NCBI GenBank assembly: GCA_025453605.1
Contig: JALOPZ010000002.1
Coordinates: 132,631-196,630 of the forward strand
Direction of reading: 5' to 3'
DNA from: Candidatus Margulisiibacteriota bacterium
GTDB lineage: Bacteria; Margulisbacteria; WOR-1; O2-12-FULL-45-9; XYB2-FULL-48-7
DNA: 64,000 bases
Of this stretch, positions 13,306 through 18,502 are shown piece by piece. Below the pieces are notes generated by a model that was not told where the DNA came from, did not search any database, and worked only from the letters and a program-made list of their open reading frames with translations. A program made the translations under genes and the position numbers. Every line of letters starts with the position of its first letter. The stretch's first letter is position 1.

Positions 13306-13920
13306 ATGAAACGCCTAATCATTGGTTCGCTCCTGGCCGTGCTCCTGCTGACCGTTGCCGCCCACGCCGCCCGCTCCAAAGATTTCTTTTTCAGCGCCGC
13401 GCTCCTCCAGTCGCTCTACCAGTACGAAAAAGGCCGGGAACTGATCGCTTCTTTTGATGACGCCAAAGGATTGGAATACCAGGTCAAGCTGCTGAACAAG
13501 GGGATGGCCGAATGGCGTCAGGGTCGGGAGATCATCAAGCCTTATCTGGAAGCGGTCGATCCGAACTACCAGTCGATCGCCACTACGGTCGACAACGGTT
13601 TGGACCTCTTCCTTGATCACGGTGAAAAAACGGTCTATGCGCTGGAACGGACGATTAGAGGGGAAATGCTCAGTGAAGAGGAGATGCAGGCCCAGGGCGG
13701 GGACCAGGAAGACGCCGAGGACCAAGCCTACACGGCGATCGGCAACGCGGTTGCCGGCTACGCTCCGACCGGGCTCTCCAAACAGGAACGCGGCATCCTC
13801 CTTTTCCGGATCGATCTCTTGTTCGGCCGTTCGTTGCGGCAGTATCGCCAGGACCAGACCAAGGTCAACGAGATCGTCGCCGGCATCGCCAAATTCGAGA
13901 AGTCACTGAAGGAGCGTTGA
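13306..13920 (+). CDS. Secreted hypothetical protein
   Basis: Signal peptide LLTVAAHAA. No recognised motif. Confidence 0.45.
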   Translation: MKRLIIGSLLAVLLLTVAAHAARSKDFFFSAALLQSLYQYEKGRELIASFDDAKGLEYQVKLLNKGMAEWRQGREIIKPYLEAVDPNYQSIATTVDNGLDLFLDHGEKTVYALERTIRGEMLSEEEMQAQGGDQEDAEDQAYTAIGNAVAGYAPTGLSKQERGILLFRIDLLFGRSLRQYRQDQTKVNEIVAGIAKFEKSLKER

Positions 13921-14324
13921 TGATCGGCCCGGAAAAACAGCAGGCGCTGGCGGTAAAACTAAAAGCGCTCGGTGTTGACCGGCGCGACGTGGTGGAAAAG
14001 TTCGTCCGCGGCGGCGGGCCGGGCGGCCAGCACGTCAATAAGGTCGCGACCGCCGTCCATTTACGGCACCTGCCGACCGGGCTCGAGGTAAAGATGGGAC
14101 AGGAACGGTCGCAAGCGCTCAACCGGTTCCTCGCCTGGCGACTGCTGGCTGAAAAGATCGAGGCGCGGCTGCTGGGGATCAGAAGCGCGCGGCGCCGGGC
14201 GATCGAAAAGATCAGACGGCAGAAAAGAAAACGGTCCAAACGGGCCAGGGAAAAGATGCTGCAGGACAAGAAGCACGTGGGCGCCAAGAAAATAATGCGC
14301 CGGAGTCCGGTCGATGCTGATTAA
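13917..14324 (+). CDS. arfB: Alternative ribosome-rescue factor ArfB (peptidyl-tRNA hydrolase, GGQ family)
   Basis: GGQHVNK motif, ~135 aa, basic KR-rich C-terminal tail, ATGA overlap with the upstream gene. Confidence 0.7.
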   Translation: MMIGPEKQQALAVKLKALGVDRRDVVEKFVRGGGPGGQHVNKVATAVHLRHLPTGLEVKMGQERSQALNRFLAWRLLAEKIEARLLGIRSARRRAIEKIRRQKRKRSKRAREKMLQDKKHVGAKKIMRRSPVDAD

Positions 14325-15540
14325 GCTGGCCTGGCGTAATATCTTTCGGCACTTTACCAGGACTTTTCTCACTTTCCTGGCGATCGCTCTCGGTCTGGCC
14401 CTGCTGATCCTGATCGATTCTCTTCTCACCGGCGTTGACCGCGATTCATTCGACAAGATCATCAGCTACGAGACCGGTCATATTAAGATATTGAACCCGC
14501 GCTATCTAGCCGACGAAGAGAACCTCCCGCTCGATAAAGCGATCGACAAACCGGCGGCGCTCATCGCTCAGCTCAGCCGCGACCCGGCAGTGGCCGGGAT
14601 TACCTCGCGGATCAATTTCCGCCTCATGCTCTCGGACGGCCGGGACCAGTATCCGGCGGTCGGCATCGCAGCCGATCCGGTTGCCGACCAGTCCGTTTTT
14701 AAGCTCAGCCAGGCGGTGGTTAAGGGCGAGTTCCTGGCCGGCCTGTCGGAAGAGGCGATGCTGGTAGGCGAAGTGCTGGCCAAAGACTTCGGGGTTGAGG
14801 TTGGTGACTACTTAACCCTCTTGACGCGGACGAAGTACGACACTTATCAAGCTCTCGACCTGCAGGTCAAGGGGATATTGCGGACCGATGACAACAAGAT
14901 CGATTACGCCGCGGTGGTCATCCCGCTCGCCCTGGCGCAGGCCGCCCTGGATATGGGGTCGGGGGTCACGGAGATCGATCTTAAACTAAAGGAGCCGGAG
15001 CAGGTCGCGGCGGTCCAGGCGCGCCTGGCGCGGGAATTGCCCGGTGTTGAGGTCGCCGCCTGGCAAAAGCTGGCGGCCGACGTAGTGGCGGTCGCCCGCG
15101 CGAAACGGGGCGGGACTTCGTTCGTTCTCTTCAGTGTTTTTATCGTCGCCCTGATCGGCATCAGTAACACGATCCTCCTGGCGGCCTTTGAGCGTACCCG
15201 TGAGATCGGGATGATGGCGGCGCTGGGGATGAAGCGAGGCGAGATCGTCAAGCTTTTTATCCTGGAAGGGGCGATGATCGGCTTACTGGGGAGCGTTACC
15301 GGCTGTCTCCTCGGTTTCCTGATCAATATCCCGCTGGTCAACCAGGGGATCGATTTCGGCTACGTGATGCGCGATGTCGGTGATATCGGTTACCGGCAGA
15401 CGGCGGTGATGCGCGGCGTCTGGAACCCGGCCATGATCGTCACCGCTTTTCTGGCCGGGATCGCCATCTCGGCCATGACGAGCGTTTATCCGGCGCGCGT
15501 CGCGGCCAGGCTGGAGCCGACGGAAGCGTTGAGGAAGTAG
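14314..15540 (+). CDS. ABC transporter permease, FtsX/LolC/LolE family (paralog A)
   Basis: N-terminal TM, large periplasmic domain, C-terminal FtsX 3-TM bundle ending ...ARLEPTEALRK, the same ending as paralog B. Confidence 0.75.
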   Translation: MLIKLAWRNIFRHFTRTFLTFLAIALGLALLILIDSLLTGVDRDSFDKIISYETGHIKILNPRYLADEENLPLDKAIDKPAALIAQLSRDPAVAGITSRINFRLMLSDGRDQYPAVGIAADPVADQSVFKLSQAVVKGEFLAGLSEEAMLVGEVLAKDFGVEVGDYLTLLTRTKYDTYQALDLQVKGILRTDDNKIDYAAVVIPLALAQAALDMGSGVTEIDLKLKEPEQVAAVQARLARELPGVEVAAWQKLAADVVAVARAKRGGTSFVLFSVFIVALIGISNTILLAAFERTREIGMMAALGMKRGEIVKLFILEGAMIGLLGSVTGCLLGFLINIPLVNQGIDFGYVMRDVGDIGYRQTAVMRGVWNPAMIVTAFLAGIAISAMTSVYPARVAARLEPTEALRK

Positions 15541-15636
15541 CCCTCACCCCGGGGAGGAGACAGCCCTCACCCGGTTTGAGGTTTGTGTTTAGTTGATCGT
15601 TAACGACCCTCTCCCAGGGGGAGAGGGTAAGGAGAA
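15541..15636. repeat. GC-rich palindromic repeat block (CCCTCACCC units plus the CCCTCTCCCAGGGGGAGAGGG palindrome) fused to the RBS of the next gene
   Basis: The same units recur at 16129-16300, 16766-16844 and 17175-17269. Confidence 0.7.
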
Positions 15637-15642
15637 ATGCGT

Positions 15643-16128
15643 ATGGAAATTGCTCAAACATTGGTTAAAGCCGCTTATCAAAGCCTCGGCTACTTTATTA
15701 TCGAAGGGATCAAGGTTGGTTTAAAAGAAATAGACTTGTTGGCTATTAAACCTGAAAAAGGGAACGTTGTTGCTGAGCGATTGCATGTCGAAGTTCAAAT
15801 AGGTGTTAGCCCAATAGGCCCGCTAAGAGAAAGAGGGGCGTTGGGGAAAGCAATGAAGGATCCGATGTCGGCAGCAAAAGCTTATATTAACAAGAAATAT
15901 AATGATATAAAAATCGTAGCTAAGATAAAAGAATATTATGGTAATAATGAATATCAAAAAGTACTTGTTTTTGGTCAACTAAAAAAGCCAGAACAGCTCG
16001 AGGTTTTTCACAAGATGGGAATTAGAGCAATTTCTGTGTCCGACCTAATCAAAGACGCAATGGCGTCAAGTCCAACACACGAATTAAAAAGAAGTATTGG
16101 GGTGTTTCGTATAATTATGAAGGTCTGA
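15643..16128 (+). CDS. Small low-GC hypothetical protein, possibly PD-(D/E)xK-like nuclease fold
   Basis: The second ATG has correct spacing to the TAAGGAG RBS. GYFIIEG ... EIDLLAIKPEKG ... HVEVQIG resembles the E..D..ExK arrangement of Hjc/NucS-type nucleases (Q in place of K). AT-rich codon usage contrasts with the window. Confidence 0.4.
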   Translation: MEIAQTLVKAAYQSLGYFIIEGIKVGLKEIDLLAIKPEKGNVVAERLHVEVQIGVSPIGPLRERGALGKAMKDPMSAAKAYINKKYNDIKIVAKIKEYYGNNEYQKVLVFGQLKKPEQLEVFHKMGIRAISVSDLIKDAMASSPTHELKRSIGVFRIIMKV

Positions 16129-16300
16129 TCCTTGCCCCTCGCCCTCTGGGAGAGGGGCCGTTGAGAAAAACTGATCGATTGCGATAATCTGGGGTGAGGG
16201 TTGCACAGCAGCCTCCGAAGCCCTCACCCGGTTGGTCGATAGGAAAAGTTGATCGTTTACGACCCTCTCCCAGAGGGAGAGGGTAAAATAAGGGGGATTT
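16129..16300. repeat. GC-rich palindromic repeat block (GCCCCTCGCCCTCTGGGAGAGGGGC hairpin; GGGTGAGGG/CCCTCACCC inverted pair; CCCTCTCCCAGAGGGAGAGGG palindrome plus RBS)
   Basis: Direct sequence comparison with the other blocks. Confidence 0.7.
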
Positions 16301-16765
16301 ATGGGAAATGACTATAGAAGATTAGCACATGAATATGCATGGAATTGGTTTAGCTATCATTCAAATCAACGTTTGACCGCATTTCATTTCTATTTAATTA
16401 TATTTGGTGCTTTAGTCTTTGGTTATTCTCAGTCATTAGAAAAGAATCCATGGGTTGCATTAATTATTGCATTATTTGGCGTTTTCGTTTCATATGTATT
16501 TGTTTTGATAGACGTTAGGAATGAGGAGCTTGTTCAGTATGGTAGGAAAGCATTAGATAAAACGGAAAAAATGATAAAAATGGATATTAGAAATAATGAC
16601 AAACATAGGAAATCTTTTAACGAAGTTATAAAGGATGAGCAATTTGCCTTAGGATTATCTAAGGACCAAATTAGGCATAGATCACTTCTAAGAAATGTTG
16701 AGAAACTAGCAATAGTTATATTTCTGTCTGGGGCGGGCTTTTCGCTGTTTAAACTTATTAAATGA
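16301..16765 (+). CDS. Small low-GC membrane protein (154 aa; two N-terminal TM helices plus a C-terminal hydrophobic helix)
   Basis: AAGGGGG RBS with 6-nt spacing. About 33% GC by eye. No recognised motif. Confidence 0.45.
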   Translation: MGNDYRRLAHEYAWNWFSYHSNQRLTAFHFYLIIFGALVFGYSQSLEKNPWVALIIALFGVFVSYVFVLIDVRNEELVQYGRKALDKTEKMIKMDIRNNDKHRKSFNEVIKDEQFALGLSKDQIRHRSLLRNVEKLAIVIFLSGAGFSLFKLIK

Positions 16766-16844
16766 CTGCTTGCCCCTCGCCCTCTGGGAGAGGGGCAGTG
16801 AACGAGGAGAAAAGGTTAACGATGACATGGGGTGAGGGCTTCTA
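16766..16844. repeat. GC-rich palindromic repeat block (GCCCCTCGCCCTCTGGGAGAGGGGC plus GGGGTGAGGGC)
   Basis: Identical to the hairpin that follows the 16128 stop. Confidence 0.7.
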
Positions 16845-17270
16845 ATGCGAATGACAGAACGAAAACGTGACTTTGCCCGTCAACTTCGGCAGGACCAGAC
16901 GGCGGCAGAGGAGAAGGCCTGGTCTTTGCTGAGGAATAATCAGATTGGAGGCCTTAAGTTCCGTCGCCAGCATGTGGTCGAGGGCTTTGTGGTTGATTTC
17001 TATTGCCCGCGACTGAAGCTGGCGATCGAGCTCGACGGCGGCGTCCATGATCGTAAGATGAATAAGGATTATGATGAGCTGCGGCAGATAGAATTGGAAT
17101 CGAAAGGAGTCGCTGTCCTTCGGTTTAGGAATGAACAAGTAATGCAAGATGAGAAAATAATCGAAAAGAAAATACTCGCCCTCGCCCCCTGGGAGAGGGC
17201 TGTTAAACGAAAACTAATGAAAAACGAAAACCGGGTGAGGGCTGTTCCTGTCCCCGGGGGTGAGGGCTAA
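16845..17270 (+). CDS. DUF559 endonuclease-domain protein (Vsr/restriction-endonuclease-like)
   Basis: ARQLRQDQTAAEEKAWSLLRN..GGLKFRRQH...DFYCP..KLAIELDGGVH...VLRFRNEQV matches the DUF559 consensus. The C-terminal 30 aa are encoded by repeat units. The stop TAA overlaps the ATG of the next gene. Confidence 0.6.
   Translation: MRMTERKRDFARQLRQDQTAAEEKAWSLLRNNQIGGLKFRRQHVVEGFVVDFYCPRLKLAIELDGGVHDRKMNKDYDELRQIELESKGVAVLRFRNEQVMQDEKIIEKKILALAPWERAVKRKLMKNENRVRAVPVPGGEG
17175..17269. repeat. GC-rich palindromic repeat block lying inside the 3' end of the DUF559 ORF
   Basis: CTCGCCCTCGCCCCCTGGGAGAGGGC, CCGGGTGAGGGCT and GGGGGTGAGGGC units. Confidence 0.65.
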
Positions 17271-18502
17271 TGCTCCGCCTCGCGCTAAGGAATGTCTTCC
17301 GCAACAAGCGCCGGTCGTTCCTGACCGGGCTGTCGATCGCGGTGGCGGTGATGATCGCCGTCTACCTCTGGTCGCTGGTCAGCGGCATCCTCGACGACAT
17401 GTTCGACAACATGGTCCGGCTCAACAACGGCCACGTCCGCGTCCTCAACAAGAATTACGTCAAGCGCGAACGGATGATGCCGCTGGGAGAAAATATCCCC
17501 GATTACCGGGCGATCAGCCAGGCGGCGCAAGACGCGCCCAATGTCACTCTGGCGGTCGGGCGGATCAAATTCGGCATCCTCCTGGAAAATCAGGACAAAA
17601 GCAAACCGGTCTTTGCCAACGGGATCGTTCCCGAAACGGAAAGCCGGATCTCCCACCTTGACCAGAAGATCGTCGAGGGCCGGCTGATCCAGGCGGGGGA
17701 GGCGGAGATGAACATCGGCGTCAACCTGGCGCGCGACCTCGACCTTAAAGTCGGCGACACCCTGACAGTGCTGACCCAGACCGCTTACGGCTCCGTTGCC
17801 GCCCTGAATCTGAAAATTGTCGGCATCTTCAGCTTTGGCGTACAGAGCATCGATAAGTCGACCGTCTACATCCCGCTGGATAAAACGCAGCAACTGCTCG
17901 ATCTGGATAACCGGGTGACCGAGATCTTCGTCTTTATCAGGGAGATGAATCGGTCGCGGCCAGCCGCCAGGGAGATCCAGGCCATTTTGGACCGGGATTT
18001 CCCCGGACAGTATTTGGCCAGAGCCTGGCAGGATGAGGGGATAATATATTTCTACATGACCTGGGCGAGATACGCGTACGCTTTTCTCTATTTTCTGGTC
18101 CTCTTCCTCTCCAGCTTCACGATCCTTAACACGATGTTCATGTCGGTCCTGGAACGGACGCACGAGATCGGGATGATGAAAGCGCTCGGGATGAAGGACC
18201 GGCAGGTGATGTGGGTGATCGTGCTGGAGGCGCTGCTGATCGGCGGGATCGCCAGCGTGATCGGCGCGGCCTGGGGCGCCGGTATCGCCTATTATTTGGC
18301 TACTGTCGGGATCGATTTCACCAAGACCTTTGACCAGATGGGGCGGATCAACCTGCCGATCTCCTACGTTTACCGGGCAATTTTCAGCTGGGGGATAATT
18401 TCCTTCGGCTTGGGCATGGGGATTTTGTTCTCGGCATTGGCGGCGGTGCCGCCCGCCCTGCGCGCGGCGCGGCTGGAGCCGACCGAGGCCTTGAGGGAGT
18501 AG
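17270..18502 (+). CDS. ABC transporter permease, FtsX/LolC/LolE family (paralog B)
   Basis: Same architecture as 14314..15540, with a conserved C-terminus ...ARLEPTEALRE. Confidence 0.75.
   Translation: MLRLALRNVFRNKRRSFLTGLSIAVAVMIAVYLWSLVSGILDDMFDNMVRLNNGHVRVLNKNYVKRERMMPLGENIPDYRAISQAAQDAPNVTLAVGRIKFGILLENQDKSKPVFANGIVPETESRISHLDQKIVEGRLIQAGEAEMNIGVNLARDLDLKVGDTLTVLTQTAYGSVAALNLKIVGIFSFGVQSIDKSTVYIPLDKTQQLLDLDNRVTEIFVFIREMNRSRPAAREIQAILDRDFPGQYLARAWQDEGIIYFYMTWARYAYAFLYFLVLFLSSFTILNTMFMSVLERTHEIGMMKALGMKDRQVMWVIVLEALLIGGIASVIGAAWGAGIAYYLATVGIDFTKTFDQMGRINLPISYVYRAIFSWGIISFGLGMGILFSALAAVPPALRAARLEPTEALRE

Follow-up and report, generated by a model that had tools for sequence, protein, structure and literature searches.

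How do three small, AT-rich genes come to lie between two permease genes of a single transporter operon, and do they belong to it? This question is raised by a 1.73-kb island (positions 15541–17269) in a 64-kb stretch of DNA, hereafter the window, on a contig from a metagenome-assembled genome (MAG) of Candidatus Margulisbacteria (Margulisiibacteriota). The island is located at the stop/start junction of two genes for LolCE-like FtsX permeases (A upstream, B downstream) and contains three open reading frames (ORFs): ORF1, ORF2 and a gene of the DUF559 family (Vsr/EDxHD-type endonuclease). An initial annotation of the window had suggested a toxin, abortive-infection or other defence-like module. 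The island is an insertion and not a native part of the transporter operon. Its core, which the initial annotation missed, is the DUF559 gene together with GC-rich palindromic repeats, and this core is found again at comparable junctions of further operons and in further phyla. The island is best read as neither part of the transporter nor a three-gene functional system, with ORF1 and ORF2 as separate repeat-framed cassettes. Overall, it probably represents a selfish element akin to homing endonuclease genes, which spreads into conserved junctions within operons and carries exchangeable cargo.

The island is an insertion at a conserved junction

The three ORFs were found between the two FtsX paralogs as initially annotated, and their AT-rich character against a GC-rich background was confirmed by computation. 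GC content and GC at third codon positions (GC3) are 0.38 and 0.34 for ORF1, 0.32 and 0.26 for ORF2, and 0.51 and 0.56 for the DUF559 gene, compared to GC3 values of 0.77–0.83 for the flanking genes and a GC content of 0.579 for the window as a whole. Within the 64 kb, 450-nt windows with a GC content <0.42 are located in the island alone. The source metagenomes are 3300037461 and 3300037408. The island is 100% identical between the assemblies of two metagenome samples, and hence is not a one-off assembly error.

Empty sites were obtained through a search for permease B homologs and inspection of the contigs that carry them (loci used for comparison are numbered with the prefix L); a metagenome scan with permease B as single-protein query gave no matches. 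The permease B orthologs of L092 (88% identity), L093 and L094 (both 77%) and L095 (75%) each have permease A directly upstream, with a gap of 0–34 nt and hence an empty junction. Alignment of the DNA with that of the closest relative (L092) gives 80% identity for permease A and 85% for permease B, with ~1.74 kb of the window corresponding to 18 nt. The reconstructed empty junction of the window reads ...GAGGAAGTAATG... Both occupied (window, L098, L099) and empty (L092–L095) alleles of this Lol-type junction were thus observed, and the initial proposal of a horizontally acquired insertion exactly between the permeases, for which a presence/absence comparison of relatives had been suggested, is upheld.

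A DUF559 endonuclease gene bracketed by inverted modules

Assignment of the third gene to DUF559 was likewise correct, with a match to PF04480 at E 1.5e-34 (118.6 bits vs a cut-off of 20.6; profile positions 2–106 of 109). Among solved structures, the protein aligns to an endonuclease-like protein, 3HRL (4e-16), and to 3R3P, the catalytic domain of the homing endonuclease I-Bth0305I (2e-5). The residues E62, D64 and H68 of the E-x-D-G-x-x-H ('EDxHD') motif align with both structures, and are invariant in comparison to L004. Matches were also obtained to the PADLOC 'HEase' and PHROG 'homing endonuclease' models, the PADLOC matches being to generic nuclease models. Homing endonucleases of the EDxHD/Vsr-like type can be intron-encoded, intein-encoded or free-standing (PMC3384342). 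No relatives of the window DUF559 clade were found in IMG/VR viral contigs. A search of IMG/VR for a generic palindrome/a-box pattern was uninformative and discarded: the sole matches were phage contigs of high GC content in which the motif pairs appeared chance-like and DUF559 was absent.

The repeats form modules of ~66 nt, of which the island contains five copies, each consisting of a conserved a-box (AGCCCTCACCC), a ~34-nt spacer and a 21-nt palindrome (CCCTCKCCC-NNN-GGGAGAGGG). The palindrome pattern CCCTCNCCC-NNN-GGGAGAGGG has 11 matches (both strands) at six sites, compared to 0.01 expected by chance, while GCCCTCACCC has 6 matches compared to 0.2 expected. All of these fall within 15540–17267 with no copies elsewhere in the window, in agreement with the initial description of each gene as framed by GC-rich palindromic repeats.

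To place the gene and its repeats in a wider context, DUF559 relatives were collected by scanning genomes and metagenomes with a DUF559 alignment, with motifs and neighbouring genes subsequently mapped. Across 150 loci, the exact 9-mer a-box is ~40x denser at ≤200 nt from the gene than at >1.5 kb (1.87 vs 0.046 per kb), and it is present on both sides of the DUF559 relative in 36 of these. In L013, L014, L016, L017, L019, L036 and others, the features follow the canonical order a-box, palindrome, DUF559, palindrome, a-box. The closest relatives, in Margulisiibacteriota as well as other phyla, are bracketed by inverted modules, and DUF559 genes and modules are associated across phyla. Two tandem DUF559 copies are present in Spirochaetota contigs (L023, 3810–4997; L043, 4001–4871), with a 522-nt period and a-boxes between the copies in L023.

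The element recurs at other junctions with variable cargo

In L004–L006, an ORF1 homolog is located together with a DUF559 gene (62% identity) and the modules seen in the window, again between two FtsX permease genes but in a different operon, OEP-MFP-ABC-FtsX-[island]-FtsX. Occupied FtsX|FtsX junctions of this Mac-type (L004, L012, L015, L017, L100, L122) have permeases only 21–28% identical to those of the window, while L097 possibly represents a further operon type. The Spirochaetota loci L047 and L051 display the arrangement ABC-FtsX-[DUF559]-FtsX-LolA_like with variant palindromes. The architecture therefore occurs at FtsX|FtsX junctions in at least three non-orthologous ABC operons and two phyla, and other occupied junctions include pheS|pheT (L101), carA|carB (L036) and Mur ligase|murB (L014).

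At FtsX junctions, the cargo slot, which separates the left module from the DUF559 gene, is either empty (L015, L017, L100) or filled by one of four unrelated cargo families: an ORF1 homolog (L004), a DUF5677 protein (L012), a ~225-aa protein of unknown family (L097, L122) or a multi-transmembrane protein (L099). All cargo at these junctions has a GC content of 0.30–0.39, and is encoded on the same strand as, and upstream of, the DUF559 gene. Hence the same architecture recurs at non-orthologous junctions, while cargo varies at orthologous ones. The modules themselves can be amplified in tandem (R x6 in L012, L x4 in L099), and ORF-less 'a-box, palindrome, a-box' units are found near DUF559 genes in L015, L101, L116 and L172.

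Anatomy and folding of the repeat modules

The order of features in the island is outer a-box, L1, ORF1, R1, L2, ORF2, R2, DUF559 (with R3 contained in its 3' end) and outer a-box, with L and R modules mutually inverted with respect to the a-box (Table 1). The outermost pair, 15547–15627 and 17179–17258, is 76–77% complementary over ~85 nt, which identifies L1 and R3 as the two ends of the element. R3 is also the best inverted partner of L1 (~77% over 47 nt), whereas the L1 spacer is nearest to those of the L modules of L099 (74–76%). The fit to the host operon is tight at either end: the permease A stop codon TAG (15538–15540) abuts the first base of the element and its first a-box, while the DUF559 ORF reads through R3 to a TAA stop that overlaps the permease B ATG (TAATG). 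In nearly all junctions compared, the right a-box is located 3–25 nt 5' of the next ATG.

Table 1 Features of the island and its flanking permease genes (window positions).
Feature	Position	Strand	Description
Permease A	14314–15540	+	FtsX + MacB_PCD, LolCE-like; upstream flank, outside the insertion
Left terminus	15541–15561	+	Outer a-box CCCTCACCC (15541–15549) and G-rich stretch GGGGAGGAGAC; inverted counterpart of 17244–17266
Module L1	15562–15627	+	a-box AGCCCTCACCC, 34-nt spacer, palindrome CCCTCTCCC-AGG-GGGAGAGGG
ORF1 (cargo 1)	15637/15643–16128	+	PD-(D/E)xK-fold nuclease-like protein
Module R1	16136–16202	+	Palindrome CCCTCGCCC-TCT-GGGAGAGGG, spacer, a-box GGGTGAGGG
Module L2	16219–16283	+	
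ORF2 (cargo 2)	16301–16765	+	8xMP-family small membrane protein
Module R2	16774–16840	+	a-box ends 5 nt 5' of the DUF559 start codon
DUF559 gene	16845–17270	+	Vsr/EDxHD-type endonuclease, PF04480
Module R3	17179–17243	+	Inside the 3' end of the DUF559 ORF
Right terminus	17244–17269	+	C-rich stretch and outer a-box GGGTGAGGG (17258–17266); permease B start directly after
Permease B	17270–18502	+	FtsX + MacB_PCD; downstream flank, outside the insertion

As single-stranded DNA, R1 and L2 together are predicted to fold as a ~150-nt hairpin (dG -40.1 kcal/mol, z -5.15). A terminator scan made no call on the 21-nt palindromes, the sole module match being a weak 5-bp stem inside L1, and an Rfam search of the island returned sub-threshold chance matches alone. 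A sigma70-like promoter match is present in R1 upstream of ORF2 (16161–16188; TTGAGA-16 nt-GATAAT with an upstream TG, 10/12). A general role of R modules as promoter carriers was considered and rejected, as R1 alone has a good match and the other R copies appear by eye to have none. The notion that modules travel with their cargo was also disfavoured, since spacer similarity suggests grouping by host lineage, a weak signal given spacers of ~34 nt.

The same asymmetric mismatch (CCCTCGCCC vs GGGAGAGGG, G.A) is present in 17/53 palindrome copies from the window and L004–L122, always in the palindrome arm distal to the a-box, while six copies contain the compensated change CCTTCTCCC..GGGAGAAGG. 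Upon hairpin extrusion, such a mismatch could conceivably matter to a Vsr-like nuclease that recognises mismatches.

The cargo genes are separate cassettes

ORF1 displays the alpha/beta core of restriction-endonuclease-like (PD-(D/E)xK superfamily) proteins. Residues D33 (EIDLLA) and E52 are invariant among its homologs and E4 is nearly so, with Q54 in the position usually occupied by K. Such ExQ variants of the PD-(D/E)xK signature occur in active enzymes, including BglII. Both small proteins had been considered unplaceable in any described family. This remains the case for ORF1, which has no match in family-profile searches and belongs to a rare family (15 clusters among 5.8 billion proteins), but not for ORF2, which is a member of Pfam family 8xMP (PF24838; 32.5 bits vs a cut-off of 30, residues 12–144 on profile positions 6–130 of 136) with relatives in 1423 representative clusters. 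The ORF2 monomer model (pLDDT 95.4) shows a helical hairpin of two long helices and a C-terminal helix, consistent with the small helical membrane protein first proposed. A fold search against the PDB gave no significant match and thus no solved relative.

The closest ORF1 homolog (56% identity, L004–L006) is located beside a DUF559 gene without ORF2, while the closest ORF2 homolog adjoins a DeoC aldolase gene. ORF1 and ORF2 were not found as neighbours elsewhere among the homolog neighbourhoods examined, a co-occurrence that had been put forward as a check on the defence-module proposal. Other relatives of ORF1 are GC-rich genes that stand alone in a housekeeping context, or reside in a contig with terminase genes; none was found in IMG/VR viral contigs. 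In the phage-like contig L007 (1892–6546), a GC-rich ORF1-family gene (44% identity) without modules lies beside terminase and ParB-methylase genes. Proteins of the 8xMP family are also found beside, or fused to, DeoC/LacD-family aldolases (L096 338–1595; P0139, P0175), a conserved pairing with no PADLOC match. PADLOC 2.0 gave no matches to ORF1 or ORF2 even at E≤1, nor to the 8xMP fusion relatives, and the sole match among the other cargo proteins was DrmMII for the L097 cargo, at a non-significant E of 0.04. Individual cargo genes may have a defence or toxin role, but this finds no support here.

Homologs of ORF1 begin at the second ATG, which suggests the real start is at 15643 (161 aa). 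This start is preceded in frame by ATGCGT, such that the ORF begins ATGCGTATG (15637–15645), the same 'MRM' start as seen in the DUF559 clade (ATGCGWATG; 16845–16853 in the window). The ATGCGT prefix resembles the remnant of a DUF559 start joined to the cargo gene, which may hint at the point of cargo insertion.

A homing-like model and its alternatives

In the proposed model, the core of the element is the DUF559 gene bracketed by inverted terminal modules, and such elements occupy the short gap, a few bases long, that separates stop and start codons in closely packed, conserved gene pairs of the same orientation. The nuclease is suggested to drive spread by cutting or nicking either the unoccupied junction or the modules themselves, after which recombinational repair would copy the element in, in a homing-like process. 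The modules would serve as sites of cargo exchange for the cargo slot, which here holds two separate AT-rich cassettes with one module copy closing each. The modules may furthermore spare the host operon, as hairpins without a T-run and with a G-rich box resembling a Shine-Dalgarno sequence shortly 5' of the following ATG, and the overlap of the DUF559 stop with the permease B start could also help keep the operon working.

The relation between DUF559 copies points in the same direction, as DUF559 of L012 (Mac-type) is 75% identical to that of L099 (Lol-type) but 62–66% identical to those at orthologous Mac-type loci. This similarity appears incongruent with the host locus, although the identity matrix covers ~108 residues and is not a reconciled phylogeny. 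Several further observations weigh against the model. DUF559 copies within one MAG are diverged (58–76% identity), and hence there is no sign of a recent burst. Several FtsX-junction cases may share one old insertion, leaving few independent events (~three or four). No consistent target-site duplication was found in 18 junction pairs and no shared target sequence at the insertion sites, apart from the codons ...GAR GCN YTG AGG..., which upstream FtsX genes share at their 3' ends. Terminal inverted repeats are not needed for homing, which leaves the role of the modules unexplained by homing alone, and the array grammar L-(ORF-R)n has an exception in the window itself, where module L2 precedes ORF2. 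A TA target-site duplication (AAG TA|GCCC...GGGC|TA ATG) was considered, but fits the window alone and is unsupported by the empty sites and other junctions.

As simple homing does not account for the inverted modules, their tandem amplification, the ORF-less units or the array grammar, a component akin to REPINs (repetitive extragenic palindromic (REP) sequences in hairpin pairs) or to gene cassettes is retained as rival or complement. In a REP/RAYT-like (REP-associated tyrosine transposase) scenario, the modules would be host repeats of the REP, BIME (bacterial interspersed mosaic element) or REPIN kind, maintained or spread by DUF559, with the repeats as the mobile unit and the AT-rich genes trapped by repeat recombination. 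The ability of modules to fold as hairpins, the existence of the compensated palindrome variant, and the ORF-less units and tandem arrays near DUF559 genes (including L165 in addition to those listed above) would all fit, as would E. coli, where ycjD is followed by similar repeats and a query piece containing these matches a median of 3 places per genome. However, the modules are confined to the island within the window, the a-box is rare far from DUF559 genes, and neither the island nor the 10 kb to its left and right contains an HUH/Y1 transposase domain. This scenario overlaps with the homing-like model rather than excluding it, and as a replacement for it we consider it unlikely but not negligible. 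An integron-like cassette array, in which a site-specific recombinase inserts promoterless cassettes at modules acting as attC/attI-type sites, could similarly explain the short, co-oriented, AT-rich cassettes that each precede an imperfect palindromic module, the L-(ORF-R)n grammar and the conserved asymmetric mismatch. Yet gene calls covering 10 kb to the left and right include no integrase or other recombinase, integron attC core sites were not seen, the arrays are very short (0–2 cargo genes) and the last 'cassette' is always the nuclease gene itself, which makes this very improbable.

The defence-like module initially proposed, with a small nuclease and a membrane protein working together, would be in keeping with a horizontally acquired, AT-rich island that encodes a nuclease-fold protein and a small membrane protein, and variable cargo at a fixed site does resemble a defence hotspot. 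It is nevertheless improbable, given that ORF1 and ORF2 are separate cassettes not found together elsewhere, that no cargo protein has a significant PADLOC match, that ORF1 relatives are otherwise solitary among housekeeping genes, that 8xMP relatives pair with or fuse to DeoC aldolase rather than a nuclease, and that neither ORF1 nor the window DUF559 clade has relatives in IMG/VR. An accessory role of the three genes in the Lol-like transporter is less credible still and can practically be dismissed: although the genes are co-oriented and tightly packed in the operon, with the DUF559 stop overlapping the permease B start and a recurrence of DUF559 between FtsX genes of two phyla, none of the three is present in the closest relatives, the GC3 of 0.26–0.56 departs from the ~0.8 of the flanks, cargo differs between orthologous operons, and the same element is found in pheST, carAB and mur junctions.

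Comparison with known systems

The element is closest in mechanism to EDxHD and free-standing homing endonucleases, in repeat architecture to REP/RAYT systems and in cassette grammar to integrons. With I-Bth0305I and related EDxHD enzymes it shares the catalytic fold and motif (3R3P, E 2e-5; E-x-D-G-x-x-H). Free-standing homing endonuclease genes between conserved genes are classically known from T4-like phages ('intronless homing'), and the location between conserved genes, presence or absence at the same site and, apparently, a similarity that departs from the host locus are features in common. In contrast to these, the element is chromosomal, in bacteria of several phyla, and not a resident of phages, introns or inteins; the window DUF559 consists of the catalytic domain alone (~110 aa) without a long DNA-binding domain; and its gene is bracketed by conserved inverted modules and carries passenger cassettes.

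Resemblance to REP/BIME sequences and REPINs with their RAYT lies in a DNA-cutting enzyme gene flanked by inverted GC-rich palindromic repeats, ORF-less hairpin units, tandem clusters and short intra-operon spacers. Here, however, the enzyme is a Vsr-like nuclease of the PD-(D/E)xK superfamily rather than an HUH/Y1 transposase, repeat copies in the window are confined to the island, and they frame protein-coding cargo. Short co-oriented cassettes each followed by an imperfect palindrome, with content varying at a fixed site, recall integrons, but the element is without IntI integrase (within 10 kb) or attC core sites, has 0–2 cargo genes and ends in the nuclease gene. Miniature inverted-repeat transposable elements and small transposons with terminal inverted repeats likewise have terminal inverted repeats (here AGCCCTCACCC / GGGTGAGGGCT) and short non-coding derivatives; unlike these, the element shows no consistent target-site duplication and encodes no known transposase family.

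In E. coli, the DUF559 gene ycjD follows sapF at the end of an ABC-transporter operon (sapF-ycjD-fabI in E. coli 118UI; L181 840–1080), and is itself followed by CCCTCACCCC..CCCTCTCCC-NNNNN-GGGCGAGGG and, further on, CCCCTCGCCCC..GGGGAGAGGG..GGGTGAGGGG. The likeness to the window thus comprises a DUF559 gene at the end of an ABC-transporter operon followed by window-type repeats, whereas cargo is absent from E. coli and modules are present only downstream of the gene. The repeats next to ycjD in the sapF-fabI spacer presumably correspond to the 'BoxC' family. A listing in PMC2267715 gives BoxC as 56 bp, with 32 copies. Window-type a-box and palindrome modules are also seen after ycjD of Pseudocitrobacter (L057 4330–4375).

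It is possible, and we suggest this only tentatively, that module-bearing DUF559 proteins are the nucleases of an unrecognised, cross-phylum class of selfish elements that combines junction homing (with a preference for the 3' end of FtsX genes), inverted-repeat ends and integron-like cargo exchange, with enterobacterial BoxC-type repeats as relics. Literature searches brought up no earlier account of DUF559 elements that combine inverted modules with cargo. If correct, the proposed reading would provide a concrete, testable role for a subset of DUF559, a very large uncharacterised family that includes E. coli YcjD, as well as an origin for the GC-rich palindromic repeats coding for 'PSPxGRG/GEG' that recur across many genomes and are a frequent source of spurious ORFs. 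It would also offer a route by which small accessory genes (nucleases, membrane proteins) enter essential operons without breakage. For annotation, it would serve as a warning that an AT-rich mini-gene lodged within a conserved gene pair may have nothing to do with the pathway around it.

Genes surrounding the island

Permeases A and B share 35% identity, and permease B is followed by genes for an ABC ATPase and a LolA_like protein. The start of permease A is overlapped by a gene for a 135-aa RF-1-domain protein (ArfB-like peptidyl-tRNA hydrolase; 13917–14324), and the Pfam listing places trehalose synthesis genes downstream of the transporter operon.

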